From a virus (taxonomy: Duplodnaviria; Caudoviricetes): a stretch of 58,054 bases of DNA. Of this stretch, positions 31,101 through 58,054 are shown piece by piece. Every line of letters starts with the position of its first letter. Within the stretch, counting starts at the first letter, position 1. The stretch spans positions 1-58,054 of IMG/VR virus record IMGVR_UViG_3300032234_000118; one strand, given 5' to 3'. Below the pieces are notes generated by a model. That model was not told the DNA's origin and did no database searches. It was given only the letters and a program-made list of their open reading frames with translations. Position numbers and translations under genes: made by a program.

Positions 31101-34100
31101 TTATGCTGCTGCACTAAACTATATATTGTCTCCTGATGGGTTAGATGATCCTCAGCGGGGTATGTATATCACTAACAAAGACTTCTTAAAAAGTAGGAAT
31201 GCATATCACAGAAGAGCTTTCCAAAATTACATTCTTCCAAATATAATCTCTGAACACACACGTATAATGAAACTACGTGCTAAGAAAGAAGAGATTGATA
31301 ACATATTAAAGCAAATACAAAAAGAAAAGAAAGAAGGTAAGCAAATTACCCCAACTCCTGTGTATGATTTTACATACTTAAAGGAAGGTCAAAAGTTTCA
31401 TGTATTTGGAAATGTACTTAACAAAAACACTAAGGATAAGCTACTTAAGATAGATGACTTAGAGCAATTCTTTAATTCTGATGTTAATGAAGCACAGCAG
31501 AAGTTAATGGATGACCTTGTTGTAGAAACTCAAATGTACTTTGAAAAGAAGTTTAAAGAGAATAAAGAGTTATTTGATGAAGCAGGATTTATTTCTGATA
31601 CTCAGTTTGATGCCGTTATTGAAAGTTTAAAACTAGCTGATGGGGAACCTGCTCCAAATAGGCAAGAACTTACTGAGGCCATATTAAACTCTTTCACATA
31701 TAATAACTGGATACACAATTTAGAGTCTATTAATATGCTTTATGGTGACTTAGCATTGTATAATCATTTGAAAGAAGAGTTTCATAAACGTAATGCAGGT
31801 ATTGCTTCAACTGGTAAGGGTTATAGAACTGATAATGACATGATTAACTTCATTAATAATTATGGTTCTAGAGAGTTTGAAAATCAAGTACGTAGTGCAC
31901 AAGGCCTAGCTGCAAGACAGTATGATGGTACTTTGAATACAGGTGTGATGCGTGACAAGATAACACGTAGCGAGTACCTAGAAGAAATAGGCTTTAACCT
32001 TTATAATCAACTGAAGGAAAAAGCTATGAAGAACAAACCTTCAGATAAAACTGAAGCAGAAGTAGAAAAAGAATTAAAGACCAAGTTATTTGGTAAAAAA
32101 TATAGTGATATAGATATCAAGACTGTTGAATCTCTTAAAGATGTTGTTCCACAAGATCGCAGCATTATGAGTAATTACTATTCAATGAATGAAGCTGATG
32201 CTCAAGGTTGGATTAGTTTTGATGCCTATAGAATATTATCTATGTCACAGAATGTGTGGTCTCCTGCACAGGAAAACATGTACAAGGCAATGCTTAAAGG
32301 AGAAGAAATTCCAGGAGATAAAATTGGAACATTCTTCCCACCTATAAAAGCACAGTACTGGGGTAATCTTAAAACAAATGATTTACCTATTGTGGCTTTC
32401 CATAAATTCCAGTTAACACCTATTACACCATCTCTTACTAAAACTAGCCCTAAGATGGCTCAGCTACATGAAAAGATGATGTTGGAAGGTATTGACTATG
32501 CATTGTTTGAGTCTGGTTCTAAAGTAGGTACACTTACTACTGCACAGTTTGATGAAAAAGGTGAAGTAATAAGAGATGAAGAAGGTAATGTGAAGTCTCT
32601 TAAAGATGATGTTTATAATAAAGATCGTGAGATAACAGATAGTCCATTTACTGTAAACACAATATATGTAGAATACTTAAAGAATCAGTTGTCTATTGAG
32701 CCTAAGTATAAAGGAAAGGTAACTATACCTACTCAGATACGTAAGCTTATTGAGGTAGATATGACTGAGAATGGTATACCTACAGATTATCAAGTTGGTA
32801 AAGCACTTGAAGATAGAATTGAAAGTTGGTTTGGATTAACTGAAAAACAAAAACTTGATGCTTCTGATAAGTATAAGAAGATAAGAAGGTATGAGGATTC
32901 AGTAATGAAATTGACACTAATTAAGAAACAACAGTTACTAAATAAGGCTAAGCTTAAAGTTAATTCTGATGGAGAGCTTGTAGGTAACATGGATAACTTA
33001 ATTAAGTTTGTTAAGTCTCAGCTTACAGCTCAAGATATTGCAGACCATGAGTTAGACTTTATAGATTTTGATTACACTAGTGGTAAGATGAAGAATGATT
33101 TGTCATTCTCACTTAGTGCAGATAAAATTGAGAATCTACTTAATGCTCTTGTGTACAAGACAATGATTCGCCAGACTACAAAAGGTGAGTCACTTATCCA
33201 GGTATCTGGAGCTATGTTGGAAGGTCAAAAACTAACAGCTGCTACTGAGGAAATTCTAGCTAAGTATGGTACAAATGGTCTTACATATTACAGGATTAAT
33301 AAAGAGAAGGGTATAATCAATGCTATGAAGATTAAGATCTCTATGCAAGGAGATTTTGAAAAGCTATTGTACTTACCAGATGTTGCTGTATTTAAAACTA
33401 AAACTGACGAGCAAAATAAAACTGTAACAAGAAAAGGTGTACCTATTCAAGAACTTGATTATAATGCTTCTCTTGAAAATCTTAATAGATTAATTAAAGA
33501 TGAGACATGGTTAGATAAAGGTGACAATAGACAGATGATTAGTCTACATGGGGATCGTATTCCTATTCAAGGACTTAACTCTGATGAGTTTGCTGAGGTA
33601 TATGAGTTCCTTCCTAAAGATGTGGGTAACGTAGTTATTTTACCAGCAGAGATAGTGGCTAAGTCAGGTGGTGACTTTGATATTGATAAGATCACTTGGA
33701 TGATGCCTAACATATCTTTGAATATGAATACTGATGCAAATGATAATTCAGTGTATGATGTTTCTCTTTATAAGGCGTTTTCAGATGATCAGTATAAAAA
33801 GAAATATGAAGAATATAAAACAAAGGCAGCTGAAAAAGTTATTACTGAAGGATTTGAACCAGGTTTAGATAGAACTATGGCAATCTTTACTTACTACAAA
33901 TTATTTGGTGGTAAGGAAGTTGTAAATAGTCAAATTACAGATGCTCTAATAGAAGAAGGTGAACTATTAACCTTTGAGGAGTTTGTATTGAAAGATCAAG
34001 AAAAAGCTGCTCAAAATGAATTACTATTCTCTATTAATAACTTGTCTAGTCAAACTGATAACTATATTAACTTAGTTAGACCTAATGGTATTGATATACT

Positions 34101-37100
34101 TGAGCCTGTAGTTAATGACCTGAAAAAGGTATATAGAGATTATAGGGCACAGATAACTACCAATGACGAGGATGCTCCATCAAAAGGTATACATGCAACA
34201 AGAGTTCTTGAATATAGATATAATTTATCTAAACAAACTCATAATAACTATGGTAAGAAAGCTTTAGGTATTGGTGCTGTGGACAATACATACAACGAGT
34301 TATTTAACAGAGTTGGTATGTACTTGATTCCTAATAATAGAGAGTTTGTTAAAGGATTAGAGAGTGCTGATATTGAAGCTTCTGTAAAAAGGGCGTTGGC
34401 ATTTAGAAATGCTAGTGATTTAATAAATAATAAAAAGAAAGAGAAGCAAGAAATTACATCTGATGATTGGAGTGCATTTAATAAAGCTAAGAAAGAATTT
34501 ACTCAAGAAGATAAAGAAATAATTTCAAACTTCCAAAGACAAACGCTTTACTTACCACATAATAAAATGACAGCTAAAGATGCTTCTGGTGTTAAATACA
34601 AAGACAAGGCTATCTCTCTGTCACATATTATGGATGCTAAGGGTGAGAACAAAATTGGAGATGTCATATCTCAGCTAATGAACGGTTGGGTGGATATTGC
34701 TAAAGATCCTTGGATATTCTATATAAGAGGTGATGAAAAGCTTGGACCAATGTTATTATTCCTTGTACAAGCAGGAGTACCAGTTGATCATGCTGCGCAT
34801 TTATTAAGTCAGCCTGTTGTAGTAGACTACATGGAAACTGTATCTAAATTACAAAGCCAGTTCTCTGATGCTATATTTAAAACTGATACTGAGGGAGAAG
34901 CTAAAGAAAAGATTACTAGAGATAAGGCTATACTTAGAGCTAAGGAAATCATCATGGAAAAACTTGGCTATGAGATTACAGGTGTTGGTAAATCAAGGAT
35001 TGCAAATCTTAATAAAAAAATCTCAGAGGAAAGTGTATATGTCCTTGATAAAGTGCTTAAGGATGGTGAGTTTGCAATGGATGACTTGAAAGATCAGTTG
35101 GATTATGTTAAAACAAAGTATAATAAGTTTGGTAAAGATGGTTTATTAGTTGGTGATCAAACTGAAATTGATTATTCAGATCCTAAGATAGCTGATTACC
35201 AGAGATCTGTATTCTTACATTTCTTGCAGATAGCAGATATGGAGAGTGCGTTAAAAGATGTTAAGCTTAGAACTAACTTTGATACTAGCAAAACATCTAA
35301 TTTATTTGAAGCACAAAACAAGATGCTTCAGTTGATGGAACTTAAGAGAAGTAGAACTGATTCTAATACACAAAAGAAGTACTGGAGATTACCTTCAGAA
35401 GTTATTGACAGAATGGTTCCTACTATTAAGGATGCAAGTGGTAATGATACTGGTTTACTTGATGAGTCTAAGGTTGGTGCTATTGTTGGTGGATTCTATC
35501 AACAGCCTTTCCAATTACAGTTGTGGAAGGACTTGTTCCCACTAAGAAACAACCCTATACTAAACTCATTTATGATTGATATGTCCTTTACTAAAAAGGA
35601 TGATTCAAAATCAGCAACATTCTTCAAAGATGATACTCAGTTAATGAGTGCATTTAAGAGTTCATTGTTGCCTATTATATTCCAGAACTCATTCTTAGGA
35701 TTTGATGCTTCTCAGTTAACTTCAAGAAACCTTGATACTGTTAAGTTTAAAGGAATGGATTTGAAGGTTGCTACTGTTGGTGCATTTGAGACTGGAGCAT
35801 TTGTTAAGAATGCAGGTTCTGTAGTTGACGGTGTTAAACTAGAACAGCCTGTGTTGTACTTTGATATAAATGCATTATGGTCTCAGTTTAATGAAGGGTT
35901 CTATGCCACTAAAGGCTACTCTAAACTAGGATTAGCTAAGCTTGATCAAGGAACGTTTACATCTTTCAACGAATACATAAAGTTTGTATTTGAAAGAGAG
36001 ACCTTAAGATCTCAGTATGTTGGTGAAGGAAGTAAGAAAAGTATGAAGGCTCTGCAAGAAACTCCAGAGTACAAAGAATACTTTAAGGATTCAATCAACG
36101 ATGTAAAGAGAAAAGAAACTGATGGTGTTAAAGAGTCTACATATGATTGGAATAAGCGTAGACATAGACTTGCATTTGAAAGATACATAAAAGATAAGGC
36201 ACTTCAAAATGCTTATAACTTATATGCTATGTTCAATGGGCAAACAGCATATGCTTATGAGGTTACTAAAATTAAATTTGATCCTAGATTTGAAGGACTA
36301 GTTGATAAGTTTCCTGTACTTAATAATCTAATTCCTGACTCTGAGCAATCTCAAGTATCTAAGAAACAGCGTATTAACTTAGCATTCTTAGACGCACCAA
36401 CTACAGGTGATGAAATCAATAACTATTATGAGCAGTTACAAGATCTTGCTAATGAGGTGCAGATTTCTAAGGCAATGCCAGAACTTAAATCAGATGAATT
36501 GAATGAGATTGCTACTGTGTTTAGAAAGCTACCTATAGCTGCGTTCTTACAATCTGGTATGAGTACAGTGGGTAGATATTCATTAGTACGTGTAGTTAAT
36601 CAGGATACTATTACTTCTATGATACTTCAACCAGTGAAGGAGTTTATAGATAAGATATCTGAAGACAATGCAAATGGTAACTATGAAACACTTAACAATT
36701 ACTGGGATGCGTTCGTATCTGCTAATAAGATCTATGATGCTCGTGGTAAAAACTTTGTAATTAAGACAAACATTGAAGGTAAGGCTGTTGAGGATCTTAG
36801 ACAAGCTAGATTTACAGTTGAAGATCCTACTGCGTATGGTGTTAAAAGAACTTATAATCCATTCTTTATAGATGAGAATGGAGTTCCTACAGAATCATAC
36901 AGTAAGGTAGGTGATCAAATAGATGTAGTGTTTACAGTTAGCGGTAAAGATTTTGTAAGCAAAGGTCACATTCTTAGCTTAGAATGGAAAGATAACAGAG
37001 TCATTGCTACTGTTGAGAATGACAATAACCGTAACCTATATACGTTTAAGTTCAATTTATCTGGTGAATTAACAGAGTATATTAAGGATGATCTTTCTGA

Positions 37101-38286
37101 TAAAGGGCCTGTTGTAAGTAATAAAAATATAGTAAAGCCTTCTATTATAATCAATGAAGATTTGATTAAGACTTTATTAGGTGAAGAGTCTGTTGGTTAT
37201 ACTATCCCTGGTGAAGAGATAGGTATCACATATACTATTGATGGTGAAAAGGTAAACAGCAGAATTGAGGTACAAGAAATTGAAGACATTGGTTACTCTG
37301 CTGATAGCTTCCCTACAGGAAACGCATATGTAAGTAACGAAAGTAATTTCTTAGTTAAGGTTAAAGGTGTCAAGAGTGGAAAAGTATCTCAGTATATTGT
37401 TAATGCTTACGGAGATGTAATATACAATGTAAAAGACAATGGTGAAATTTCTCTTTCAAGAAGTAGTACTAAGTTAGATATTGACTTACCACTTAAGAGA
37501 AAGAAAGCTGGATACATTGTAAAGAGTTATACTGAGATTGATAACTTAATCCAGAATACAGGTATTCTTCCAGGTACAATAATAGACTTGATGGAACCAC
37601 ATCCTAAAGTTAAGACTACTAAGAGTACACTATTGTTATACGATGCATTGACGCTTACTCTTGTTCCTGTTACTGATACATATGATGATGTAATTGAGGA
37701 GAAAGAACTAGCTGAGGATGACTCTAATTTCTTTATGGTTTACAATGGTGCAACTTCTCCTAGAGGTAACATCTATCAAGAGAGACCTTCAGCAACTGCT
37801 GCTCCTGGTGGTAAAGGGTCTGTTGATTTAAAAGATAGGTTCATACACCACAGTGAGTATACTAATAAGGTTGGTTTAATAACTAGATTAACCTATGGTG
37901 GTGGTACTACAGTAGAATTTATTACAGATGAAATAGATCCTGAAACTGGAGCTGCAAGCGTAAGACCTGAAATTAAAGAAGCAATAGATTTAGGCATTGA
38001 AGAAATCAAAAATAAAATAGAAAAAGAAAATCTAAAACCAAGATTTAGTAGTGCAGGTTATGGTCAGTATATGATTGGTGCTGATGACATGACCTCAGAG
38101 ATAATTGGTGATCCTATAGCTAAGGAAACTTTCATATATTTGTCTAAGAAACTATTAGAGCTAGGCTATATTAATCCTAACTTTATAGAGAAAGCAGAAG
38201 GTTTGAAAGATGTTGCCAGTGCTACTAAGCAACCAGTGACTGATGAAGAGTTTGTAGATCTAATGAATAAATGTTTTAACATATAA
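25156..38286 (+). CDS. Virion-packaged single-chain (crAss-type) DNA-dependent RNA polymerase
   Basis: 4376 aa. RIPIQG...AKSGGDFDIDK with the catalytic DFDID at 33673-33687, as in phi14:2 gp66; also KRNAG, DAQG, VDIAKDP and a HEAWH zincin motif at 28609-28623. Confidence 0.92.
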   Translation: MFCSLNSEEGKKAYIALTTYVGSVMNNIAFSPVDKFDIDKLMKDTYDNVYNSTNNYEQAIDITRAIPRIVLSLAPRDISILSTLIPKGLNLSSIAEYATQANEEKTGISFIEDKLGVSQDILQEVKDAQEGTVKQEVPEEKIESELPEIQVPGEQLTFSFDENGEVETVDVTEEVTKQKTDIEAKKADIERRRQKAIEFNKGAKPVTEEDYKEFDKDFVLTEEYKKLLGTYDFDLDPESRSDDDLVGNIKSIQEGMDLINAKYDAELAALEDTEEQIILPEDKVFEAVAPHVLKDTDNEALSMDKASSKFNVIDPAKKLFYKVKRNIVRAIRGGAKSSEINYPGVGALYLKAQSSSLLPEDVKLKDSSPVVLVVVDKDGNAVKFDDNGNVSPTGKISFYNLRTPFDIDGKYEKKRITALAKQFKISEEVAKKVLLKERGVVEEVLDYVSKDINNTVIMDITGGTLGHLGSQAEPYLISKVAFGKDVFRVDYDGKGNYTFRLPSVSDDAIRIGRTETKDSPALVDLLSDFIVNDIYTTSGALLTNKEKKDILSRYLMLSSSQVSVLSTGPILLGEKMQVNTPEERVAAKEALVKYFNNLFPYKVLDKGEVNDRVRNGARIVSDINDATNRGDILAKTDVNTGELVYQLLTYPTLNITKAGLDAGMHFSLAKDDVNGGMRMTPIVNGYTENYIKENYKIDKLLNAENQLVALNAYLTFEPVSYETGKIDPVTTKEEEEELDDYDAFLEQLTAEQKAAYDALPAETKEAMAIIKNANANLPFNGILSQQTVLTFENNLRGGLYDRNFAVEVLTQLKDQIKLSAEQIRIAEANIRKFTKPVQAPISPVPVTGSTNITATIQPVVNKEGKVNIYDGTKENAHLSNFAERPFVYEGTEFPTVEHAFQYAKGKFYNEYAIDPSSDETPDQRRALVDKHLQKILNAKTAAEAKRLGRAQIGVDFEDDMWDEASPAIMKKLIEESFKQNPEALANLLTTGNLEFTHTQDKSRWGTEFPKLLMEVRNELKTTPLAESNTVEIQDPADAKAEPDSKLDKKRKVSGRKVTRGGKINLSDDTFGKQIDNDEEHFKLYAQKSVNPKATMAQIEAARKWYESNPISKYFPFRQLFDLVNEKNPDSVATWSMNGVMLYKGSDFTDLYHEAWHGFTQALMSTEQRDEIYSEVRKKSGSFTDYEGKIVQFKDANNKQLEEYLAEDFRKYMLSKGKKVEKGAPKKNTFFRKLMNLLEFLFGNATIQEVTADNKATSRLQEVYEKLSAGEFSDYAFNKDNAEFGSLNKSGIQAITEEDTFKNFSAKESKLLLDSMDAWIAEAILAANSGIENRKEYEEFNKKSIDMFLNKMTPQQMEEFRIEMAPKLTYGQTAKYLRTKEGRTNAYKAVQYKLAELVNRVFDEQEAEKDPAKKLKLRETHTLLYKAFTNFGDVTNIENNQPGKNGELKGLITYHMAKSKEFSGKMTDLLDEAEASDETKSSRSEYSDKSGNDTSLRDLAKAEVIYMFKTLYKYDPKTGQPVLNEIGAPILMDITATWNKVALILENERNVTRMYEKLLAYAQNPEQTEMTYAIRQLLTKMGPKGVSGENLGHLQNKDSENLWTDFWSVFSTRRIPLIAMTTEMKMSKGEVESISTRIGRGINPNIQIGKAWNSLFKSDATNKYMTRVDGIPRLNLDKVLEDFKDADYVINNNKVFDFLDAIGVKLTRNKEIELALRDGDSELGIPGDYKIVKALLTPTLNRVKEDPEYKKIYSTIVQKNVERRSLLQILNENGVWIQQPSDIFEAREGMFVAGREKLNPGTPEESYRDIKIGKLTGEKSNWNQALALEGQYGQGVVSFMVTTASGTTQFEHSLNSTMSIMVTSLNEVQDDENSSAYEKLIKMPHMSHFDIERNPNAKRYAWLKNMFYIDDAYKNTALWGRRKEVKGVPVKLDLYNISGAQLAGEEGVSSASADPFTKFIFDLHLVTQKGLGEFMKHSDKSSSYAAALNYILSPDGLDDPQRGMYITNKDFLKSRNAYHRRAFQNYILPNIISEHTRIMKLRAKKEEIDNILKQIQKEKKEGKQITPTPVYDFTYLKEGQKFHVFGNVLNKNTKDKLLKIDDLEQFFNSDVNEAQQKLMDDLVVETQMYFEKKFKENKELFDEAGFISDTQFDAVIESLKLADGEPAPNRQELTEAILNSFTYNNWIHNLESINMLYGDLALYNHLKEEFHKRNAGIASTGKGYRTDNDMINFINNYGSREFENQVRSAQGLAARQYDGTLNTGVMRDKITRSEYLEEIGFNLYNQLKEKAMKNKPSDKTEAEVEKELKTKLFGKKYSDIDIKTVESLKDVVPQDRSIMSNYYSMNEADAQGWISFDAYRILSMSQNVWSPAQENMYKAMLKGEEIPGDKIGTFFPPIKAQYWGNLKTNDLPIVAFHKFQLTPITPSLTKTSPKMAQLHEKMMLEGIDYALFESGSKVGTLTTAQFDEKGEVIRDEEGNVKSLKDDVYNKDREITDSPFTVNTIYVEYLKNQLSIEPKYKGKVTIPTQIRKLIEVDMTENGIPTDYQVGKALEDRIESWFGLTEKQKLDASDKYKKIRRYEDSVMKLTLIKKQQLLNKAKLKVNSDGELVGNMDNLIKFVKSQLTAQDIADHELDFIDFDYTSGKMKNDLSFSLSADKIENLLNALVYKTMIRQTTKGESLIQVSGAMLEGQKLTAATEEILAKYGTNGLTYYRINKEKGIINAMKIKISMQGDFEKLLYLPDVAVFKTKTDEQNKTVTRKGVPIQELDYNASLENLNRLIKDETWLDKGDNRQMISLHGDRIPIQGLNSDEFAEVYEFLPKDVGNVVILPAEIVAKSGGDFDIDKITWMMPNISLNMNTDANDNSVYDVSLYKAFSDDQYKKKYEEYKTKAAEKVITEGFEPGLDRTMAIFTYYKLFGGKEVVNSQITDALIEEGELLTFEEFVLKDQEKAAQNELLFSINNLSSQTDNYINLVRPNGIDILEPVVNDLKKVYRDYRAQITTNDEDAPSKGIHATRVLEYRYNLSKQTHNNYGKKALGIGAVDNTYNELFNRVGMYLIPNNREFVKGLESADIEASVKRALAFRNASDLINNKKKEKQEITSDDWSAFNKAKKEFTQEDKEIISNFQRQTLYLPHNKMTAKDASGVKYKDKAISLSHIMDAKGENKIGDVISQLMNGWVDIAKDPWIFYIRGDEKLGPMLLFLVQAGVPVDHAAHLLSQPVVVDYMETVSKLQSQFSDAIFKTDTEGEAKEKITRDKAILRAKEIIMEKLGYEITGVGKSRIANLNKKISEESVYVLDKVLKDGEFAMDDLKDQLDYVKTKYNKFGKDGLLVGDQTEIDYSDPKIADYQRSVFLHFLQIADMESALKDVKLRTNFDTSKTSNLFEAQNKMLQLMELKRSRTDSNTQKKYWRLPSEVIDRMVPTIKDASGNDTGLLDESKVGAIVGGFYQQPFQLQLWKDLFPLRNNPILNSFMIDMSFTKKDDSKSATFFKDDTQLMSAFKSSLLPIIFQNSFLGFDASQLTSRNLDTVKFKGMDLKVATVGAFETGAFVKNAGSVVDGVKLEQPVLYFDINALWSQFNEGFYATKGYSKLGLAKLDQGTFTSFNEYIKFVFERETLRSQYVGEGSKKSMKALQETPEYKEYFKDSINDVKRKETDGVKESTYDWNKRRHRLAFERYIKDKALQNAYNLYAMFNGQTAYAYEVTKIKFDPRFEGLVDKFPVLNNLIPDSEQSQVSKKQRINLAFLDAPTTGDEINNYYEQLQDLANEVQISKAMPELKSDELNEIATVFRKLPIAAFLQSGMSTVGRYSLVRVVNQDTITSMILQPVKEFIDKISEDNANGNYETLNNYWDAFVSANKIYDARGKNFVIKTNIEGKAVEDLRQARFTVEDPTAYGVKRTYNPFFIDENGVPTESYSKVGDQIDVVFTVSGKDFVSKGHILSLEWKDNRVIATVENDNNRNLYTFKFNLSGELTEYIKDDLSDKGPVVSNKNIVKPSIIINEDLIKTLLGEESVGYTIPGEEIGITYTIDGEKVNSRIEVQEIEDIGYSADSFPTGNAYVSNESNFLVKVKGVKSGKVSQYIVNAYGDVIYNVKDNGEISLSRSSTKLDIDLPLKRKKAGYIVKSYTEIDNLIQNTGILPGTIIDLMEPHPKVKTTKSTLLLYDALTLTLVPVTDTYDDVIEEKELAEDDSNFFMVYNGATSPRGNIYQERPSATAAPGGKGSVDLKDRFIHHSEYTNKVGLITRLTYGGGTTVEFITDEIDPETGAASVRPEIKEAIDLGIEEIKNKIEKENLKPRFSSAGYGQYMIGADDMTSEIIGDPIAKETFIYLSKKLLELGYINPNFIEKAEGLKDVASATKQPVTDEEFVDLMNKCFNI
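27751..28215 (+). other. NADAR (YbiA/DUF1768-like) domain within the virion RNA polymerase
   Basis: LSNFAERPFVYEGTEFPTVEHAFQYAK..ILNAKTAAEAKRLGR..WD..IMKKLIEESFKQNP..LLTTG..DKSRWG..PKLLMEVR. Confidence 0.85.
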
Positions 38287-38289
38287 GAA

Positions 38290-41200
38290 ATGAGTGTTTG
38301 TCCTAATATTAATTTACCTGAATGGCAAGCTTTAGAAAAAGCAGTTGGAAGATTTGAAGCGTATAAAGATTTTGTAGAATCTGGTTATGAGATCAGATCT
38401 GTTGAAGAAGTACAGGAAAAGATTGATAAGAGAAGAGAAGGCATAACTAAAGCTAAGGTATATCCTCATACTCAAGGACTTATGTCTGGAAACTTATATG
38501 AGGTAGAACAAGCCTTAGCTGATTCTTCACAGCCAAATATTGAGAATATGGCTAAAAGGATAGCTAATGACTCCAATGTTACAAGAGCAATGGAGATAGC
38601 TAGGAAACTATCAAATTCATTAGGGGTAAACTTTGACATCATCAATGCTGAAAGAGCACAGCAGATTACTGCAGGTACTAAGAATCCTTGGACAGGACAG
38701 CCAGCATTTTACTATGGTGGACAAGTATACTTTGTAGGTGAGACTTTATCTGTAAACAATGTATTGCATGAGTTTGCTCACCCTTTAATACGTCAGATAC
38801 AGGTAGATAATCCTGCATTGTTTCAGAATCTATACAATAAGTTAGCTGCTACTGATGAGGGTGTGCAGATAATTAATAATGTAAAGAATAACAATCCTGA
38901 TCTTATGCAGGATGGTCAGATGTTCCAGGAAGAGGTAATGGTTAAGGCTCTTGAGAAGGCAGCTGTTGATCAAGAACAAACAAGTAAGTTTGCTGCATTT
39001 ATTAGAGATATCTTATTTGCAATAAAGAAAGTATTACGTAATGCTTTAGGTAAAATAGAGGTAAGCTCACTAGATCAGAATACTACATTGGATCAACTAG
39101 CATACATGCTAACCAATGACCAGTTCCAAATAAATACTGAGCTAATTACTGAGGAGGATGTAGTTGCGTATGTGCGTGATTATCAGCAGGAGATAAATGA
39201 TATGGCTCGTATAGATAAGGTACAGCTACAAGCACTTATTAAACAGGCATATGACTTAGCTGCGGGACAGTTAACAGAACTACGTAATAATGAAAACTAT
39301 AAAGAGTTAGCATTAATCCTTAGAGACCAGTATAAGGTTCCTGAGATGGAGGTAATCATGAATGATCTTAGGAAGTACAGATCTGAGATAGATAAGATTG
39401 TTGATGATGAAGTGGCTTCTATGGAGAGATTGGAGTCACAGGCTAATGCATTAGTAAGTACTGTATATAACATAGATACTGTTATTAGCAAGATCCAGAT
39501 ACATATGGATGACATCTATAAGACTGGGGATAGCCAAAGCAACATGGCTAAGATGCACTATTATGCTAAGATAGTTAAGTACTGGGGTAAGTATATCCAA
39601 CAGTTAGAGGAAGAGTTTAATAAGCCTGGTTCTGGTGTAAGTTCTTCATCTAAGATATATCAAGTAATCAATAACATCAATACCAATCTTAAGAAGATTG
39701 AGAATGTGGCTGATGAAATGGCAGCTGATGGTGCAAGGGATACTTTATATTCTGAGTTAGAACCTATAACTAGAGATGTAAAAGCTCGCTATGAAGAAAT
39801 CATTTCTGGTCTTAAAAAGAAGGGTGCTCCTCAAAGAGCTATTGATAGATGGCATAAAGAGTACTATGGTCTAACAGAGGATGCATATAAGCGTTATTCT
39901 GAGCTGCGAGAGAAGCTGCGTAATAAACAATACATGTCTAATGCTGAACAGTTAGAATATGCTAACATGCGTATTGATGCTGCTAAAGGATTAGAGTTAA
40001 CTCCTGAGAAGATTGAGGATTTACTAAAGGGTAAGATTGGTGACGCTAACTGGTATAGTTCATACTTGGAAGGGTACTTGTCTAATCCTGATCCTATTGT
40101 GGGTGGACTAGCACTATTTGTAAAGAATAGAATGAATGAGGTGATGGCTAGAGCACAGGCTAAGTTCAATGACTTCTCTGAGGATATATCACAAGCACTT
40201 AAAGATTATGGGTATAACCCAACCAATATAGGTAAGCTAGGTAGAGATACTGGCTTTGAGGATATTGTAGCTGTGGAAGAAGAAGGGCAGTTGGTACAGA
40301 AGAAAGTATGGACATTCCTTAATCCTTTTAAAGATTATAGATATGATCTTAAGGTGATGAATAAGAACCTTGATGAGGCAGAAATAGAATACTCTACTAC
40401 AGGTACTGATGAGTCACTGGCTAAGTTGAGAAATGCTGTTGCTGAGAAGAAGGAGTTCATGAGAAAGTATTTCCACCAGGAATATAAACCTGAGTTCTAT
40501 AAAAGACAAGAGTTACTAGAAAGAGATGAGATAGGTAAGATAGCATCTCATATGCGTGAAACTATTATAGAGAAGATTCGTAAGGAAAGTAAGCTAGGGC
40601 AAAATGAAACTGAACAGTTAGAATCTACTCAGAATATAGATAGATTATGGAGAGAGTATAGACAATTACATTCCTTATTTGATTTGTTTGGTAATAAGAA
40701 AACAGGTCAGGACTTGCAAATAGCTGAAAGGTTGCGTGAGTATAGAGATCAATCTAGAGAGTTCTATAACTGGAAGGAAAGAGCTGGTGTATTCCAAAGT
40801 TTATTAAATAAGTATGAGGATGAACTAGCTGCTAGGTTCTCTAAGGATGACCCTATGTATAGTACACTCCGTGATGAATGGATTAGAAAGAATACAAGGG
40901 TAGTTATTAAGCCTTCATTCTATACTAGAAGACAAGAGATATTCCAGAAAATTAAAGATATCTTAGATACTTTACCTGATTCCCAAAAGAAGGAGGCTGA
41001 TTTATCTGTACTGCATAATGCTATTATAGATATCAAAGCTGGATTTAGAGATGAGGATGGGCAACCTAACCCAGCTGAAATGACTAAAGAAGCAGTAGAG
41101 AAAGTTAAGAGACTGGAAGAAGAACTGCAAGAAAGAAAGAAAGCATATATTGGACTAAATGGTTTAACTGGTGAAGACCAGGCTAGACTAAGTGAATTGT

Positions 41201-43863
41201 ATTCTATTAAAGCTACTCGTGATTTAACAGCACTAGAAGCATCTGAGTTAAATACTTTGTATGCTAGGAAGTCAACGAACCAGTTAGACAAGTACTCTAA
41301 GGCTGCACTAGAAGAAGCATATAGAGAGTTGGAGGAAATGTCTTCTACTGAGGCTACTAATTACTATACTGATATAGTTAACAACTACCTTCAGAGAATG
41401 GACACTGACTTTATGCAAAGCAGGACAGGTTCTAGAATAATTACTGAAACTAATGCTGATGGCTTGTTAGATGATGAATTGATTACTAACTTGAAATCTC
41501 AAGATGCAGAATTTGCTAGATGGTTTGATGCTAACCACGTTAAAACTACTGATTATAAAGGTGATATAAAATATAAAAGAGTATCTGTATGGTCTGTAGT
41601 TAGACCTGCTGATTCTCAGTACTTAGAGAAAACAGAAATTAAAGATCGTAGTGGTAGAGTAATTGAGGTGATTGATGGATTACCTACTTTGAAATACTAT
41701 AAGCAGGAGGTTAAGGAAGAGTATAAAACTGATTTGATAATTGGTAAGACTATAGATAACAAGGGTAACTTCTTACCTAAAGCATTAGAAGATAGAGATC
41801 CAGGTGTTGATGATAAGTATATCAACCAAGAATACTACAGGATTAAAAATACTAATCCTCAGTTATTCAACATCTTAGAAAAACTAAAAGAACATCACTT
41901 AAGAAACCAGCAAGGACTAGATGCATACTCTAAGTTGTATTTAGATTTCCCTAGGTTTACTAAAGGTAAGTTTGAAACTATTCAATCTGCTGATTTAACA
42001 CAGTATGTAGGACGTGTAAGAGAGTTCTTTAAGGGAGCTAAAGATGATGCTGAGTCAGGATTTAACTACAACAATCAGTCTAACATGGTTAAGTTAGATA
42101 TGTTTGATGATGAAGTTACTAAAGTTCCAATAGCAGGATTGTATAATCTGGATGCTAAAGATGTATCTACTGATATCATTACATCTATGATGAGATATTC
42201 ATTGTCTGCTGAAAGACAAAAGCAGTTGATTGAAATAAGTCCGTTAGCTAGAGCAGTACAAAAGGTAGTAAACAATCCTAACAATACTGTAGATTTAGAG
42301 AAGATAAACAAGTGGAACTTTGTACATAGACAGCTTATCACATATAAGAAAAAGAAAGGTACAAGTGTAAGAGCAAGTGCTGTAAACAATTTCCTTGAAA
42401 GAGAGTTTGAAGGGCAGACACAAAAAGGTGTAGCCTCTGAGTCTGCGTTCATTAACAACTTTACTAATTTACTATTTAAGAATGCATCTAGACAGTTCTT
42501 TGCATTGAATATACCGTCTGCTCTTAAGAACTACTATAGTGCTAAATGGCAGACAGTCATTGAGACATCAGCAGGTAGATATCTTAATCCTATCTCTGCT
42601 GGTAAAGGTAATGCGTGGGCATTTGCTGCTATGGGTGAAATGAGTTTTACAAATCAGCTATATAAGAAAGGACCTAAGTCTTTGAATATGCAGTTGATAG
42701 AAATATTTGATCCATCACAAGGTAGGTCTGAACAAAGATATGGTAGTTCCATGTCAAGAACAATTGCTAAAGATGTACTAGAGGGTAGCTGGTTATATAG
42801 TCCTAGAAAGTGGTTAGAACTTCAAGCTACTCTGCAAGTATTTGCTGGTATGATGTATCACGTAAATGATATAGAAAGAAAACTTCCTAATGGTACTGTA
42901 CAGAAAATTAGCTACATGGATGCTTGGGAGTTAAGAGATAATAAGATTCAGCTAAAAGAAGGAGTTGATCCTAAGTGGGGTATTACCTATGATGAAAATG
43001 GTGAGTTAAAAGTTGGGACTGAGTTCAATAGATTTAAGAACAGAATGCAACAGGTGATGAATAATCTCAATGGTGCATATGCTGAATTTGATCAACCTGA
43101 AGCTCAAAGATATGTAGCATTTAGAATGGTAAGTTTCATGCGTAAATACTTTACCTCAATGGTAATGAACCGTATGGGGCATAAAGGTCCATTGTGGAAA
43201 GCTAGTCCTAGAATGAACTACGGAATGGGTGAGCAGCATATGGGATTCTATGTACAGACTCTTATGACTATAAAGAATGCTGCATTAAATGCTGACGTTA
43301 CTTTAAAGTATGCTACTAAAGAAGAGAAAGCTGCTGCAATGAGAATGCTTACTGAAATAGCATTGTTGATGTTAGCATCCTATGTTATCTATGCACTGTT
43401 TGGATATGACCCAGATGATGATGAAAAGTGGGATAAACTAAAAAATCTATCTGGCCCATTACCTTTCCCATTTGTTGAAACTGACAGAGACTTTAATGCT
43501 ATGGGTTATCTTAAACTACATGCATTAAATCAAGTAATGTCTGTAAGAGCAGAGAATGAACAGTTCTTACCATTACCAGGAGTAGGTTTAGATGATTACT
43601 TAAATCTTACTGACTTAAAGTCTATTGCATTAGGACCAACAACTGATACATGGACAGCTGCATTTGAAGATTTATATGCTATTGTAACTAATAGTGATGA
43701 TGCATACTATACCAGAGATGTAGGACCTTATTCTTTCCAAAAGAAAGAGAGTCCTAAACTTATAGCTAAGCTTGCTAAGTTGGCAGGATTTACAGGTACA
43801 TCATTAGACCCTGCACAAGGAATTAAGAACTTTGTTGGTGCACAAGCACTCGCAAGAAGATAA
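38290..43863 (+). CDS. Giant virion/ejection protein 3 with N-terminal zincin-like motif
   Basis: 1857 aa. AFYYGGQVYF..LHEFAHP (38767-38781)..EEV; hydrophobic helix LTEIALLMLASYVIYALF near the C-terminus. Confidence 0.75.
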   Translation: MSVCPNINLPEWQALEKAVGRFEAYKDFVESGYEIRSVEEVQEKIDKRREGITKAKVYPHTQGLMSGNLYEVEQALADSSQPNIENMAKRIANDSNVTRAMEIARKLSNSLGVNFDIINAERAQQITAGTKNPWTGQPAFYYGGQVYFVGETLSVNNVLHEFAHPLIRQIQVDNPALFQNLYNKLAATDEGVQIINNVKNNNPDLMQDGQMFQEEVMVKALEKAAVDQEQTSKFAAFIRDILFAIKKVLRNALGKIEVSSLDQNTTLDQLAYMLTNDQFQINTELITEEDVVAYVRDYQQEINDMARIDKVQLQALIKQAYDLAAGQLTELRNNENYKELALILRDQYKVPEMEVIMNDLRKYRSEIDKIVDDEVASMERLESQANALVSTVYNIDTVISKIQIHMDDIYKTGDSQSNMAKMHYYAKIVKYWGKYIQQLEEEFNKPGSGVSSSSKIYQVINNINTNLKKIENVADEMAADGARDTLYSELEPITRDVKARYEEIISGLKKKGAPQRAIDRWHKEYYGLTEDAYKRYSELREKLRNKQYMSNAEQLEYANMRIDAAKGLELTPEKIEDLLKGKIGDANWYSSYLEGYLSNPDPIVGGLALFVKNRMNEVMARAQAKFNDFSEDISQALKDYGYNPTNIGKLGRDTGFEDIVAVEEEGQLVQKKVWTFLNPFKDYRYDLKVMNKNLDEAEIEYSTTGTDESLAKLRNAVAEKKEFMRKYFHQEYKPEFYKRQELLERDEIGKIASHMRETIIEKIRKESKLGQNETEQLESTQNIDRLWREYRQLHSLFDLFGNKKTGQDLQIAERLREYRDQSREFYNWKERAGVFQSLLNKYEDELAARFSKDDPMYSTLRDEWIRKNTRVVIKPSFYTRRQEIFQKIKDILDTLPDSQKKEADLSVLHNAIIDIKAGFRDEDGQPNPAEMTKEAVEKVKRLEEELQERKKAYIGLNGLTGEDQARLSELYSIKATRDLTALEASELNTLYARKSTNQLDKYSKAALEEAYRELEEMSSTEATNYYTDIVNNYLQRMDTDFMQSRTGSRIITETNADGLLDDELITNLKSQDAEFARWFDANHVKTTDYKGDIKYKRVSVWSVVRPADSQYLEKTEIKDRSGRVIEVIDGLPTLKYYKQEVKEEYKTDLIIGKTIDNKGNFLPKALEDRDPGVDDKYINQEYYRIKNTNPQLFNILEKLKEHHLRNQQGLDAYSKLYLDFPRFTKGKFETIQSADLTQYVGRVREFFKGAKDDAESGFNYNNQSNMVKLDMFDDEVTKVPIAGLYNLDAKDVSTDIITSMMRYSLSAERQKQLIEISPLARAVQKVVNNPNNTVDLEKINKWNFVHRQLITYKKKKGTSVRASAVNNFLEREFEGQTQKGVASESAFINNFTNLLFKNASRQFFALNIPSALKNYYSAKWQTVIETSAGRYLNPISAGKGNAWAFAAMGEMSFTNQLYKKGPKSLNMQLIEIFDPSQGRSEQRYGSSMSRTIAKDVLEGSWLYSPRKWLELQATLQVFAGMMYHVNDIERKLPNGTVQKISYMDAWELRDNKIQLKEGVDPKWGITYDENGELKVGTEFNRFKNRMQQVMNNLNGAYAEFDQPEAQRYVAFRMVSFMRKYFTSMVMNRMGHKGPLWKASPRMNYGMGEQHMGFYVQTLMTIKNAALNADVTLKYATKEEKAAAMRMLTEIALLMLASYVIYALFGYDPDDDEKWDKLKNLSGPLPFPFVETDRDFNAMGYLKLHALNQVMSVRAENEQFLPLPGVGLDDYLNLTDLKSIALGPTTDTWTAAFEDLYAIVTNSDDAYYTRDVGPYSFQKKESPKLIAKLAKLAGFTGTSLDPAQGIKNFVGAQALARR

Positions 43864-55966: not shown

Positions 55967-56572
55967 TTATACAACTTTTACTGCATGAATTATTGGTTCT
56001 TCTACTTCATCAGAGAGTATCATTTCACAATAATTTGCAAGGTCAGAACTATAAGACTTGTCCGTATCTTGTTTACGAATAAAGTATTTAGATGTACGCA
56101 TATATTTATACCCACTGGTGACATAGTCATCTACATACTTCTCAGTAGCATCTAGTATTACATCCCATGAATAGTCATAGTTATTGAAGAACCATTTGAA
56201 TGCATTCTTGATATTGGGCTTACTGTCTCTAGCATACTTACCTGTGGGTAATTTAATTGCAGGGAATATATTTATATACTCCTGTATCTTATCCTCCCAG
56301 TCATTACCTAGTATATCACCCGCTGCATTTTCTGCCTGCTTGGTAAATATAGATTCTATTTTCTTAACAAGATTCTTACCCCGCTGAGTTACATATAACT
56401 TATTCTCATTAGTTACTATGACATACTCACGTGTTACTAGTACATCCAACTCTTCAGTAATTTCGATAAGTTCAGTTGGTGACTGGTCTACTATAGACAT
56501 CAGTACATAATACTGGTTAGGTGTTAGCTTGAGTGTGGTGATTGCCTTAAATAATTCTTTCTGCTTCAACAT
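55967..56572 (-). CDS. Putative winged-helix replication initiator/helicase partner
   Basis: N-terminal wHTH pattern (LTPNQYYVL..LVTREYV..VTQRG) and C-terminal FP..ATEKYV..YMRTSKYFIRK..SDLANYC; adjacent to DnaB. Confidence 0.5.
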   Translation of the reverse strand: MLKQKELFKAITTLKLTPNQYYVLMSIVDQSPTELIEITEELDVLVTREYVIVTNENKLYVTQRGKNLVKKIESIFTKQAENAAGDILGNDWEDKIQEYINIFPAIKLPTGKYARDSKPNIKNAFKWFFNNYDYSWDVILDATEKYVDDYVTSGYKYMRTSKYFIRKQDTDKSYSSDLANYCEMILSDEVEEPIIHAVKVV

Positions 56573-56573
56573 A

Positions 56574-56783
56574 CTATTCGTTATCTATTCTAATATAATA
56601 AAACTGTGGAAGACTTCTAGTATTATGATGCATCTCAAAGTCTTTAGTAGATAGTACCCAGCCAATTTCTTTTGCTATATTCTTGAACTCATCTAGAGGT
56701 ATAGCATTTGCAGATACATCATGCTCTTCACAATACTCCTGGAGCTTGTGATCATTCTCAATTAAATAAATCATATTTACCAT
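56574..56783 (-). CDS. Hypothetical protein
   Basis: 69-aa ORF packed between ung and the wHTH gene. Confidence 0.6.
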   Translation of the reverse strand: MVNMIYLIENDHKLQEYCEEHDVSANAIPLDEFKNIAKEIGWVLSTKDFEMHHNTRSLPQFYYIRIDNE

Positions 56784-57253
56784 TTTATTTCTGTATTATA
56801 TTTTTCTTTTACTAATCTACTTACTTCAGTAAATACTCCATTGCTATCCCATATACCTTCCTTACTGTATACAGCTGAGGCGGGATGAGAACATTTAAGT
56901 ATGTGATTCCTCTCCTCTGATATGTATGGTATCCAAGCCTGGGCTGCATTACCCATGAATACATATACTATACCTGTAGTAGACTCATCTAGTACTTGAA
57001 ATAAGTATGTCATAAATGGAGTCCATAAATCTTTATGAGCTCCTGCTATACCGACTCTAGTTGTCAGTGCACTATTAAGCATTAAGATACCTTGATTACT
57101 CCAATCCTGTAGATTGTATGTATGGAAGTGTTCTATTCCTTCAGCATCTAATCCTTTGTATATAAACTTTAGACTAGGTTGTATCTGTGACGGATGACTA
57201 GTATGGCTGCAACTAAATGCAATACCATCTGCTACTCCTTCCTTTGGGTACGG
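56777..57253 (-). CDS. ung: Uracil-DNA glycosylase (family 1), exon 2
   Basis: PYPKEGVADGIAFS..QPSL..DWSNQGILMLNSALT..H..LW..VFMG..SHPAS; in frame with exon 1 GQD. Confidence 0.92.
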   Translation of the reverse strand, partial: PYPKEGVADGIAFSCSHTSHPSQIQPSLKFIYKGLDAEGIEHFHTYNLQDWSNQGILMLNSALTTRVGIAGAHKDLWTPFMTYLFQVLDESTTGIVYVFMGNAAQAWIPYISEERNHILKCSHPASAVYSKEGIWDSNGVFTEVSRLVKEKYNTEIKW

Positions 57254-58045
57254 CTACCCTATTTTACTCATGTTTCCATGAGGATCGGACTATATCATCA
57301 CTTATTTTTATTATAAGTGGAGGATGCTCTGGGCTCACCTTAGTGTCCCTAGTCTCTGAACCTTCCTTGATCTTCCCCAAGGCTCGGCTGCTGATTGGCA
57401 TATCTATTATGACTTAGCTTTCCAGCAATTCTTCCTCTTTATACAGGACCCGTCTTAAATTTTTTGTTAATAGTTCTAGTTCATCAATAGATAAATTTTG
57501 TTTAGCAGTATTAGCTCTATGTGAAATAACTAATATGTTATTTTTGACATATCCTAAATCTGGTATTATTCTATCTAACGATGGACTATTTGATGAATGT
57601 TTTTTATCATTTACATGTAATGGAATATTTAATAAAGGACATACTTTGGGTATTACAATATCAGTATATGAAATATCAAAAGGTACCCCTTTATTAATTG
57701 CTCTTTTTTTTGCATGAGCAATCATTACTTTTCTAGGATCTTTATGATATCTAACTTTCCTTGATTCTTTAGATGAATACCTATCAATTCGTATTGCATT
57801 TAATGAACATTTTTTACAGGTACTTCTATAATAAAGAGTTTTGCATTTTTTAGATGGATCTTTAGTAGTTGGACTTGCCATTCTTATTCTACTACTAAAG
57901 CAATCTAACGGTAGCCATACCATACATGACGTACATTTTCTTGTATTATTATCTTTATTATAATTTTTCATCGGTGCTATTCTTAGTTCCATATACAATA
58001 ATTTTATTGCACAAGGTACTAACAAAAAATTTAATTTCCAAATTA
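57254..58045 (-). mobile_element. Group I self-splicing intron (792 nt) inserted in the ung GQD|PY motif
   Basis: 5' exon ends in U and the intron ends in G. Core elements are P GAAUUGCUGGAA (57420-57431), Q AAUCAGCAGCC (57386-57396), R GUUCAGAGACUA (57350-57361) and S GAUAUAGUCC (57287-57296). There is a P9 GAAA hairpin (57267-57282) and an IGS ACGG-GUCCUGU (57443-57453). Confidence 0.93.
57414..57992 (-). CDS. Intron-encoded His-Me finger (HNH-like) homing endonuclease
   Basis: CTSC..CKKC zinc finger; CPLL..SPSLDRIIPDLGYVKNNILVISHRANTAK. ATG at 57992 (or 57971). Confidence 0.8.
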   Translation of the reverse strand: MELRIAPMKNYNKDNNTRKCTSCMVWLPLDCFSSRIRMASPTTKDPSKKCKTLYYRSTCKKCSLNAIRIDRYSSKESRKVRYHKDPRKVMIAHAKKRAINKGVPFDISYTDIVIPKVCPLLNIPLHVNDKKHSSNSPSLDRIIPDLGYVKNNILVISHRANTAKQNLSIDELELLTKNLRRVLYKEEELLES

Positions 58046-58054
58046 ATCCTGTCC
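58046..58054 (-). CDS. ung: Uracil-DNA glycosylase, 3' end of exon 1 (truncated by the window)
   Basis: GGA CAG GAT = G-Q-D, which joins CCG TAC (P-Y) to give GQDPY. Confidence 0.85.

Follow-up and report, generated by a model that had tools for sequence, protein, structure and literature searches.

The virus record IMGVR_UViG_3300032234_000118 was analysed in its entirety (58,054 bases, estimated to be 48% complete), and this whole stretch is called the window below. Our subject is a 792-nt insert on its minus strand, lying between the Asp and Pro codons of the GQDPY motif in a gene for uracil-DNA glycosylase (UDG). We propose, with a probability of about 0.88, that the insert is a group I intron, both functional and mobile, and that its removal by splicing restores the UDG reading frame. 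This proposal draws on the anatomy of the locus, a match to the group I intron family, covariation, the occurrence of both empty and occupied alleles and a patchy distribution, all of which were observed here. The main features, in order of transcription, are as follows.

58046-58054, minus strand: last 9 bases of UDG exon 1 (GGA CAG GAU = G-Q-D); relatives have VGQD here
57254-58045, minus strand: group I intron of 792 nt, with boundaries set by intronless alleles and an Rfam match
58043-58045, minus strand: in-frame UAA, the first intron codon, which ends exon-1 translation at the splice site
57414-57992, minus strand: endonuclease gene in the P1 loop, 192 codons from ATG 57992, with its stop at 57414-57416
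57443-57453, minus strand: internal guide sequence ACGG-GUCCUGU, inside the endonuclease open reading frame (ORF) and directly 5' of P3
57254-57254, minus strand: terminal G of the intron
56777-57253, minus strand: UDG exon 2, 158 codons (PYPKEGVADGIAFSC ... SHPASA ...) followed by a stop at 56777-56779

The split UDG gene

At the end of the window the minus strand reads GGACAGGAU (G-Q-D), the reverse complement of 58046-58054 being GGACAGGAT. The insert follows at once, from 58045 to 57254; its first codon is UAA and its last base is G, and G57254 is directly followed on the minus strand by CCGTACCCAAAGGA, or CCG UAC CCA AAG GAA. From 57253 this frame stays open for 158 codons and closes at the stop 56777-56779. 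The boundaries are exact to the base, because a shift of a single base would break GAU|CCG. An earlier annotation made from the letters alone, here called the sequence-only reading, had given the insert as 57254-58045 with an in-frame UAA, a terminal G and a restart at CCGUAC, and each of these is exact in the sequence. It had also pointed out, correctly, that the ORF list holds only a 101-aa fragment (56777-57082) of the exon-2 frame.

The product of exon 2 matches Pfam UDG at 28.7 bits (cut-off 24.3), positions 68-227 of 227 in phrog_12143, and, from their position 61-69 on, the NCBIfam ung models (best E 1.8e-29); the visible UDG product thus lacks roughly 67 to 78 residues at its N-terminus. 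L002, a full-length relative, scores 49.2 bits against the Pfam UDG superfamily domain and 142.7 bits against TIGR00628, below the cut-off of 185.75, and it matches solved family-1 enzymes (UNGs; 3tr7, E 4.6e-24) with the GQDPY and His-Pro motifs aligned. In family-1 UDGs, GQDPY is the water-activating motif and the His-Pro motif lies near the C-terminus. Here GQD|PY straddles the junction, and SHPASA of exon 2 aligns, via L002, with HPSP of the solved UNGs; the two motifs take the forms GQDPYP and HPASA, versus GQDPYH and HPSPLS. The Pfam, NCBIfam and solved-UNG matches uphold the identification of the host gene as a uracil-DNA glycosylase. By its sequence we class it as a divergent family-1-type UDG, a label chosen because the clade is divergent and scores under the NCBIfam equivalog cut-offs. 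Because the insert divides the catalytic Asp codon from the remainder of the gene, uracil repair in this phage would depend on RNA splicing; the sequence-only reading had likewise made UDG activity depend on splicing, as would follow from the placement of GQD and the remainder in separate exons.

The ribozyme core and its guide sequence

Rfam model RF00028 (Intron_gpI) matches positions 57266-57502 on the minus strand with 88.9 bits (E 4.6e-23; the gathering score is 50), over model positions 1-253 of 253. It is the sole Rfam match at gathering in the window, in which a nhmmer profile of the core finds one copy. The elements of the core are listed below.

57266-57502, minus strand: stretch matched by RF00028 Intron_gpI, 88.9 bits
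57433-57437 with 57320-57324, minus strand: P3, enclosing P4, P5, P6, the 5' strand of P7 and the extra hairpin (57320-57437)
57422-57427 with 57389-57394, minus strand: P4
57395-57421, minus strand: P5
57378-57382 with 57365-57369, minus strand: P6, with outer pairs 57387-57388 with 57360-57361
57350-57354, minus strand: P7, 5' strand
57331-57349, minus strand: extra hairpin of P7.1 type, 19 nt, between P7 and the 3' strand of P3 (P3')
57299-57319, minus strand: P8 hairpin
57288-57292, minus strand: P7, 3' strand (UAGUC), invariant in 25 of 25 sequences
57267-57282, minus strand: P9 hairpin with a GAAA loop; 6 of its 6 pairs change on both sides

All 44 core pairs are standard in the window, and energy folding of the core recovers all of the nested helices. 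P2 is not apparent in this intron, and the two 5' hairpins that the Rfam model aligns are coding sequence upstream of the guide sequence, with mismatches. Covariation was assessed in an alignment of 25 cores, comprising 11 from UDG genes at this site (the window among them), one from a second UDG site (L125) and 13 from other genes. Of its 1061 cells 98.5% are paired, and both sides change in 23 of the 44 pairs; none of 500 shuffles reached these covariation values, and controls in which the pairing was slid were 30-42% paired. P4, P7 and most of the extra hairpin are uninformative because they are invariant, and one pair of the P7.1-type hairpin shows a compensatory change. Subgroup IA introns are defined by extra P7.1/P7.2 helices between P7 and P3'; the window intron has one P7.1-type hairpin in that place.

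A single guide sequence can hold both exons. Its bases 57443-57449 (GUCCUGU) pair with ACAGGAU (58046-58052), the exon-1 end and 5' strand of P1, to give a helix of 7 bp in which G57449 stands opposite the splice-site U, and bases 57450-57453 (ACGG) pair with CCGU (57250-57253), the first four bases of exon 2 and the exon strand of P10. No other site in the 792 nt is able to pair 6 or more bases with the end of exon 1. In the nine alleles with a visible exon 1, pair 7 of P1 tracks the third base of the Gly codon (A-U in 2, U-A in 6, G.G in 1). P10 in turn tracks the Pro codon in the 11 distinct alleles described below, with three covarying states in 10 of the 11 (CCGU/ACGG in 3, CCUU/AAGG in 5, CCAU/AUGG in 2) and a mismatch in the remaining one (L116). 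Since the guide follows exon codons through synonymous changes, selection for alignment of the exons during splicing is the only explanation that we find. The covariance-model match, the P1 and P10 pairings, the terminal G and the covariation thus agree with one another, and the group I assignment of the sequence-only reading stands.

Empty and occupied alleles

Nine relatives on viral contigs, 62-67% identical in exon 2, all carry an uninterrupted VGQD|PYPKEGVADG (9/9), and the four of them that were read fully encode uninterrupted proteins of 234-235 aa. The window sequence itself is contained in freshwater metagenome runs. A contig of run X1 over 56500-57552 and one of run X3 over 57236-57473 each bridge exon 2 and the intron with zero differences. 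In runs X3 and X6, other contigs follow exon 2 to 57247 with 1-2 differences and then continue with 30 letters that encode, on the minus strand, K-V-V-F-V-G-Q-D-P-Y. Judged by sequence, these contigs represent the intronless allele of a close relative; they are about 97-98% identical to the window in exon 2 and have the codons CCU UAU, versus CCGU in the window. A further X6 contig, over 57246-57302, joins the 3' end of the intron (2 differences in 57 bases) to another UDG exon 2 (PYPQIHVADGIAF), and the same intron is therefore present in several UDG backgrounds within one sample. The insertion point between the D and P codons of GQDPY, which the sequence-only reading had put forward, is borne out by the nine uninterrupted relatives and by the intronless contigs of two runs.

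Alleles were then surveyed from both sides of the junction. When the first 78 residues of a relative's UDG were searched against proteins of 42-137 aa, 14 of the 20 short UDG N-terminal proteins found ended exactly at GQD. An alignment of these 14 led to 572 viral loci, of which the best 80 were analysed. At the junction 77 continue in frame, one (L048) stops there, and in two (L025 and L044) GQD is immediately followed by a stop. Each of these two has an 82-codon exon 1 that ends in GQD and a stop, an exon 2 situated 853 nt (L025) or 803 nt (L044) downstream, an RF00028 match (73.9 and 84.8 bits) and a homologous endonuclease ORF; they are the only loci among the 80 in which the nhmmer core profile was present. 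From the intron side, 19 bases of the window's P7 region were compared with viral loci, which yielded 28 loci; UDG exons flank 14 of these, at this site in 13 cases and elsewhere in one (L125). De-duplication left 11 distinct occupied alleles, the window and ten others, so that both empty and occupied sites are on hand for phage UDG genes. The description of ung as an unusual host gene holds in part: a full-text literature search found no paper reporting an intron in a UDG gene, but the 14 of 20 short proteins ending at GQD and the 13 of 28 P7-signature loci at this site speak against it, the element being common at this position in related freshwater phages.

Other searches added no alleles. 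The exact 5' junction, a gapped pattern of the 3' junction and a single endonuclease query had no match in viral contigs, and six metagenome loci retrieved with the gapped pattern were rejected as chance matches in unrelated genes, with no Rfam match in a multi-locus scan. We also considered a second insertion site after PYPQG, suggested by L033-L035, L056 and L080, and rejected it. L033 is an uninterrupted ORF of 256 aa and has no intron; some 20 extra residues (GPVTVREGKDGMVREVSRYP) are inserted in frame where its active-site loop passes from PYP to ADGI. L034, L035, L056 and L080 were judged from their similar junction sequence only.

In all nine occupied alleles whose exon 1 is visible (the window, L098, L099, L106, L107, L108, L114, L121 and L123), the intron opens with a stop codon, namely TAA in 6, TAG in 2 and TGA in 1. 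The use of all three stop codons points to selection for halting ribosomes at the splice site, and the stop itself thus seems to be under selection. The window and L048 are independent contigs that both end no more than 10 bases from the 5' splice site. Alleles with and without the intron are present in the same runs, and this polymorphic position is probably one at which assemblies break.

The introns resemble one another far more than the genes that carry them. The window core is 96.8% identical to that of L116 and 94.9% identical to that of L123, loci whose exon-2 proteins are 42-47% identical, and overall cores are 88-97% identical among UDG alleles with 42-47% identity. In a tree of 75 distinct exon-2 proteins (identical rows merged, L068 dropped as too short), the distribution of the 11 occupied rows requires 9 changes of state, versus a mean of 10.4 after shuffling, and at least 5 of these changes are forced by well-supported branches. 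The window falls within a 100%-supported clade alongside 5 empty alleles, and L107 and L099 are each paired with an empty allele. A single ancient insertion followed by vertical descent does not fit these relationships.

Relatives of the intron also occupy other sites. L125 carries one at a second position in a more canonical UDG (RF00028 79.7 bits), where, in intron-forward orientation, exon 1 runs to about 585+39 and the core lies at about 1200-1412. By reading, the splice falls inside the Leu codon of ...GQDPYHNGAATG-L-AFGVRSG, and the exon-intron junction has 14 bases (ACAGGAT|TAATTTG) in common with the window, though read in another frame. A P2 hairpin and the intron's own P1 (GGAU/GUCC) and P10 (UAGC/GCUA) were identified by eye, and the ORF is of the classical Endonuclease VII type with a DHxH motif. 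The sequence of L125 is consistent with a move of the intron to a further position that suits the guide.

The same P7/P7.1 sequence was found in introns of a family A DNA polymerase gene (L117, DNA_pol_A) and of NAPRTase-family genes (L118, L120), and the group of L101, L103 and L104 forms further sister loci with it; Endonuclease_7 ORFs are present in L103 and L104, and in L115 a LAGLIDADG ORF follows the core. In Dulem virus 41 (PP511520.1) a polymerase/primase intron belongs to the same ribozyme lineage, with 77.5% identity over 173 nt and an RF00028 score of 71.7 bits. Dulem virus 41, L117, L118 and L120 share P7/P7.1 with the window and show compensatory changes in P3, P6, P8 and P9, whereas their host genes and guide sequences are unlike the window's; the Dulem virus 41 intron is also short, without the endonuclease gene of the window.

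The endonuclease gene, alternative explanations and proposed homing

Most of the intron is filled by a 192-codon endonuclease gene that the sequence-only reading overlooked. We place its start at ATG 57992, from relatives of 192-193 aa (the ORF lister starts at TTG 58025). Its last 13 codons (R-V-L-Y-K-E-E-E-L-L-E-S) and UAA make up the guide sequence, P3, P4 and part of P5. The protein has 93 relatives; its PHROG matches are to families of endonucleases, endonuclease VII and HNH endonucleases (best phrog_3322, E 2.4e-32), and distant relatives in GenBank phages are annotated as HNH or restriction endonucleases. Searched singly, it had no sequence match in Pfam, NCBIfam or PDB. Ten residues are invariant in 42 sequences of the family: C118, P119, D140, R141, G147, Y148, N152, A160, N161 and K164.

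An AlphaFold model of the endonuclease (mean pLDDT 88.1) gave as its best Foldseek matches, all of them weak, Hpy99I (E 0.014), PacI (E 0.056, probability 0.89) and a Geobacter (Gme) HNH nickase, which are all beta-beta-alpha-metal enzymes. In an alignment of the family profile, D-R ... G-Y ... N ... N-x-x-K falls on PacI residues 91-135 (VDRSDSFEGYSPQN) at a weak E of 0.1, placing D140, Y148 and N152/N161 on the PacI Asp, Tyr and Asn. According to passages in PMC5714182, PMC3384342 and PMC4081073, PacI holds its metal with Asp and Asn, and a tyrosine replaces the catalytic histidine as the base. PacI (PDB 3ldy/3m7k; assigned to His-Me finger group 20 in a section of PMC5714182) thus appears to have this motif in common with the window protein and likewise has no catalytic histidine, and a further likeness lies in the N-terminal Cys pairs of the window protein. 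The two differ in that the window protein is intron-encoded and presumably recognises a long UDG target, and the scores that match them are weak. With moderate confidence, resting on the profile and the model, we regard the protein as a PacI-type nuclease.

In three distinct alleles, L098 (= L100, L112), L106 and L114, a LAGLIDADG_2 gene (E 6e-36 to 1.4e-32) replaces the PacI-like gene in the P1 loop. Both kinds of ORF sit in the same loop and frame, and both finish on a common end, ...VLxKEEELLES, drawn from the guide sequence, P3, P4 and P5. Three things here were unexpected: a P1-loop ORF that extends through the core of the ribozyme, the substitution of one endonuclease family for another, and an enzyme of the PacI type.

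Several points weigh against a functional, mobile intron in an active UDG gene. The record shows just 9 bases of this phage's exon 1, the remainder lying past the contig end, and runs X1, X3, X6 and X20 had no contig over 57912-58054. None of the runs listed as containing the sequence is recorded as RNA, and spliced RNA was not found; X20, the one possible RNA run, yielded only cores of related introns attached to different sequence. By folding energy the core is only modestly better than shuffles (z -1.87). Multi-locus Rfam scans missed sister introns, finding 5 of 11 and then 0 of 6. L123, the one of these six missed loci that was searched again singly, scores 93.5 bits against RF00028, and the missed sister introns are probably losses from the speed filters of the scan; a blank multi-locus or whole-window Rfam scan is therefore weak evidence of absence. 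The tree sample is non-random, occupied rows having been found via the intron and empty rows via exon 1. As to the host enzyme, both exon 2 (103.1 bits) and the full-length L002 (157.8 bits) miss the NCBIfam ung equivalog cut-off of 162, and activity on uracil is a property that the divergent protein would be expected to have. For the endonuclease there is no Pfam match, the HNH or Endonuclease_7 model being found in 0 of 42 family members (E 0.01); the family lacks an invariant histidine, with D-R replacing the D-H of HNH and Endonuclease VII enzymes; and the likeness to PacI comes with weak scores (Foldseek E 0.056, profile E 0.1), so that nuclease activity is not assured.

The alternative that best survives concerns the ORF. 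The intron may splice while its ORF encodes an inactive protein or one that binds RNA or DNA, such as a maturase, with spread occurring vertically or by reverse splicing. The D-R in place of D-H, the lack of an invariant histidine and the lack of a match to a Pfam nuclease family are what such a protein would show, and the second UDG site of L125, with its 14-base junction match, is what reverse splicing into a guide-matching site could leave behind. Set against this, D140, Y148, N152 and N161 are invariant in 42 sequences and align with PacI, an active nuclease that itself has no such histidine; the patchy spread links cores 88-97% identical to UDG alleles only 42-47% identical; and the replacement of the ORF by a LAGLIDADG gene in three alleles argues for ongoing selection for a nuclease. 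We consider a protein without a part in homing unlikely.

Less probable still, and in our view very unlikely, is an intron that is real but does not splice, a decaying relic in a UDG gene that has become a disrupted pseudogene. It would account for the fact that no splicing was observed, and exon 1 is out of view. Yet exon 2 is open for 158 codons and retains the conserved motifs of its family, the endonuclease ORF is intact, and the pairs of the window are intact throughout (core 44/44, P1 7/7, P10 4/4); P1 and P10 moreover keep step with synonymous changes in the exons from one allele to the next, a pattern whose sole explanation is selection for splicing. An assembly artefact, in which intron and endonuclease were mis-joined to this exon 2 from a mixed population while the real gene is uninterrupted, can draw on a contig that stops 9 bases into exon 1, on L048 halting at the same junction and on the 97-98% identical intronless variants in X3 and X6, but it is hardly credible given that independent X1 and X3 contigs bridge exon 2 and intron without a difference, that the window guide fits its own exon-2 codons (CCGU/ACGG) and not the CCU UAU of the intronless variant, and that a short-read assembler is expected to end a contig where two alleles diverge.

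On the reading that we prefer, a functional and mobile intron, the guide sequence would bring the two exons into register. Its 3' part would pair with the final 7 bases of exon 1, leaving a U.G pair at the cleavage point, and its 5' part with the opening 4 bases of exon 2. Splicing in two steps, started by guanosine and finished at the terminal G, would then join GAU to CCG in one UDG frame, and UDG would be made from spliced RNA only. The UAA at the first intron codon would free ribosomes at the splice site. The endonuclease, if active, presumably cuts intronless UDG alleles of co-infecting phages, and the intron would be copied into them by homing.

A more tentative idea, which we think has the odds against it, is that the ribozyme has two roles, one as a common platform on which unrelated endonuclease genes dock and the other as a switch that times or doses the supply of UDG. 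Since the ORF reads through the guide sequence and P3-P5, a ribosome translating the endonuclease must unwind them, and a ribosome completing exon 1 would stop on the P1 strand. If translation of the endonuclease unwinds the core in this way, endonuclease synthesis and maturation of the UDG mRNA would be mutually exclusive on each transcript. Were this true, the PacI-type tyrosine nucleases would be a genuine class of homing endonucleases.

The T4 genes td, nrdB and nrdD (sunY), which serve nucleotide and DNA metabolism, contain self-splicing group I introns with a looped-out homing endonuclease ORF, a stop codon soon after the 5' splice site and a subgroup-IA-type hairpin between P7 and P3'. 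The window intron likewise has a looped-out ORF, an early stop and a hairpin between P7 and P3'. It differs from the T4 introns in its UDG host, in the ORF that extends from the P1 loop through the guide sequence, P3, P4 and P5, in having no apparent P2 and a single P7.1-type hairpin, and in an endonuclease that is PacI-like and not GIY-YIG. I-HmuI and I-HmuII, of Bacillus phage introns, are HNH homing endonucleases that keep the catalytic histidine. The window protein shares with them the setting of a beta-beta-alpha-metal nuclease in a phage group I intron of a DNA metabolism gene; unlike them, its family has no invariant histidine and no match to Pfam HNH (0/42).

Group I introns with endonuclease ORFs that split core genes and complicate ORF calling are described for crAss-like phages in sections of Yutin et al. 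(2021; PMC7886860), and by these passages they are of a similar kind to the window intron and also occur in large phages known from metagenomes. The window UDG is nearest to those of crAss-like and Flavobacterium phages, at only 35-40% identity, and the DNA polymerase to those of assorted phages, at 32-34%. Comparison of 24 ORFs with PHROG families, and of two structural ORFs by tblastn, gave no assignment of the phage to a taxon, Crassvirales included, and these two large ORFs (534 and 844 aa) had no tblastn match in 50,697 phage records. The window also contains giant ORFs of 4376 aa (25156-38286, plus strand), 1664 aa (5641-10635), 1572 aa (20438-25156) and 1857 aa (38290-43863), almost without family matches; the 4376-aa ORF matches only phrog_1017 and phrog_652, over residues 865-1022.

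The intron adds UDG to the phage genes colonised by group I introns. At such loci ORF-based annotation yields an 80-aa 'hypothetical' protein, an 'HNH endonuclease' and a truncated UDG, and contigs tend to break. The eleven alleles amount to a natural experiment, in which the guide follows synonymous codons and two endonuclease families share a common, ribozyme-encoded tail. They also provide a candidate homing enzyme of the tyrosine-type His-Me class, whose target would be a defined, highly conserved sequence of 20-30 bp.

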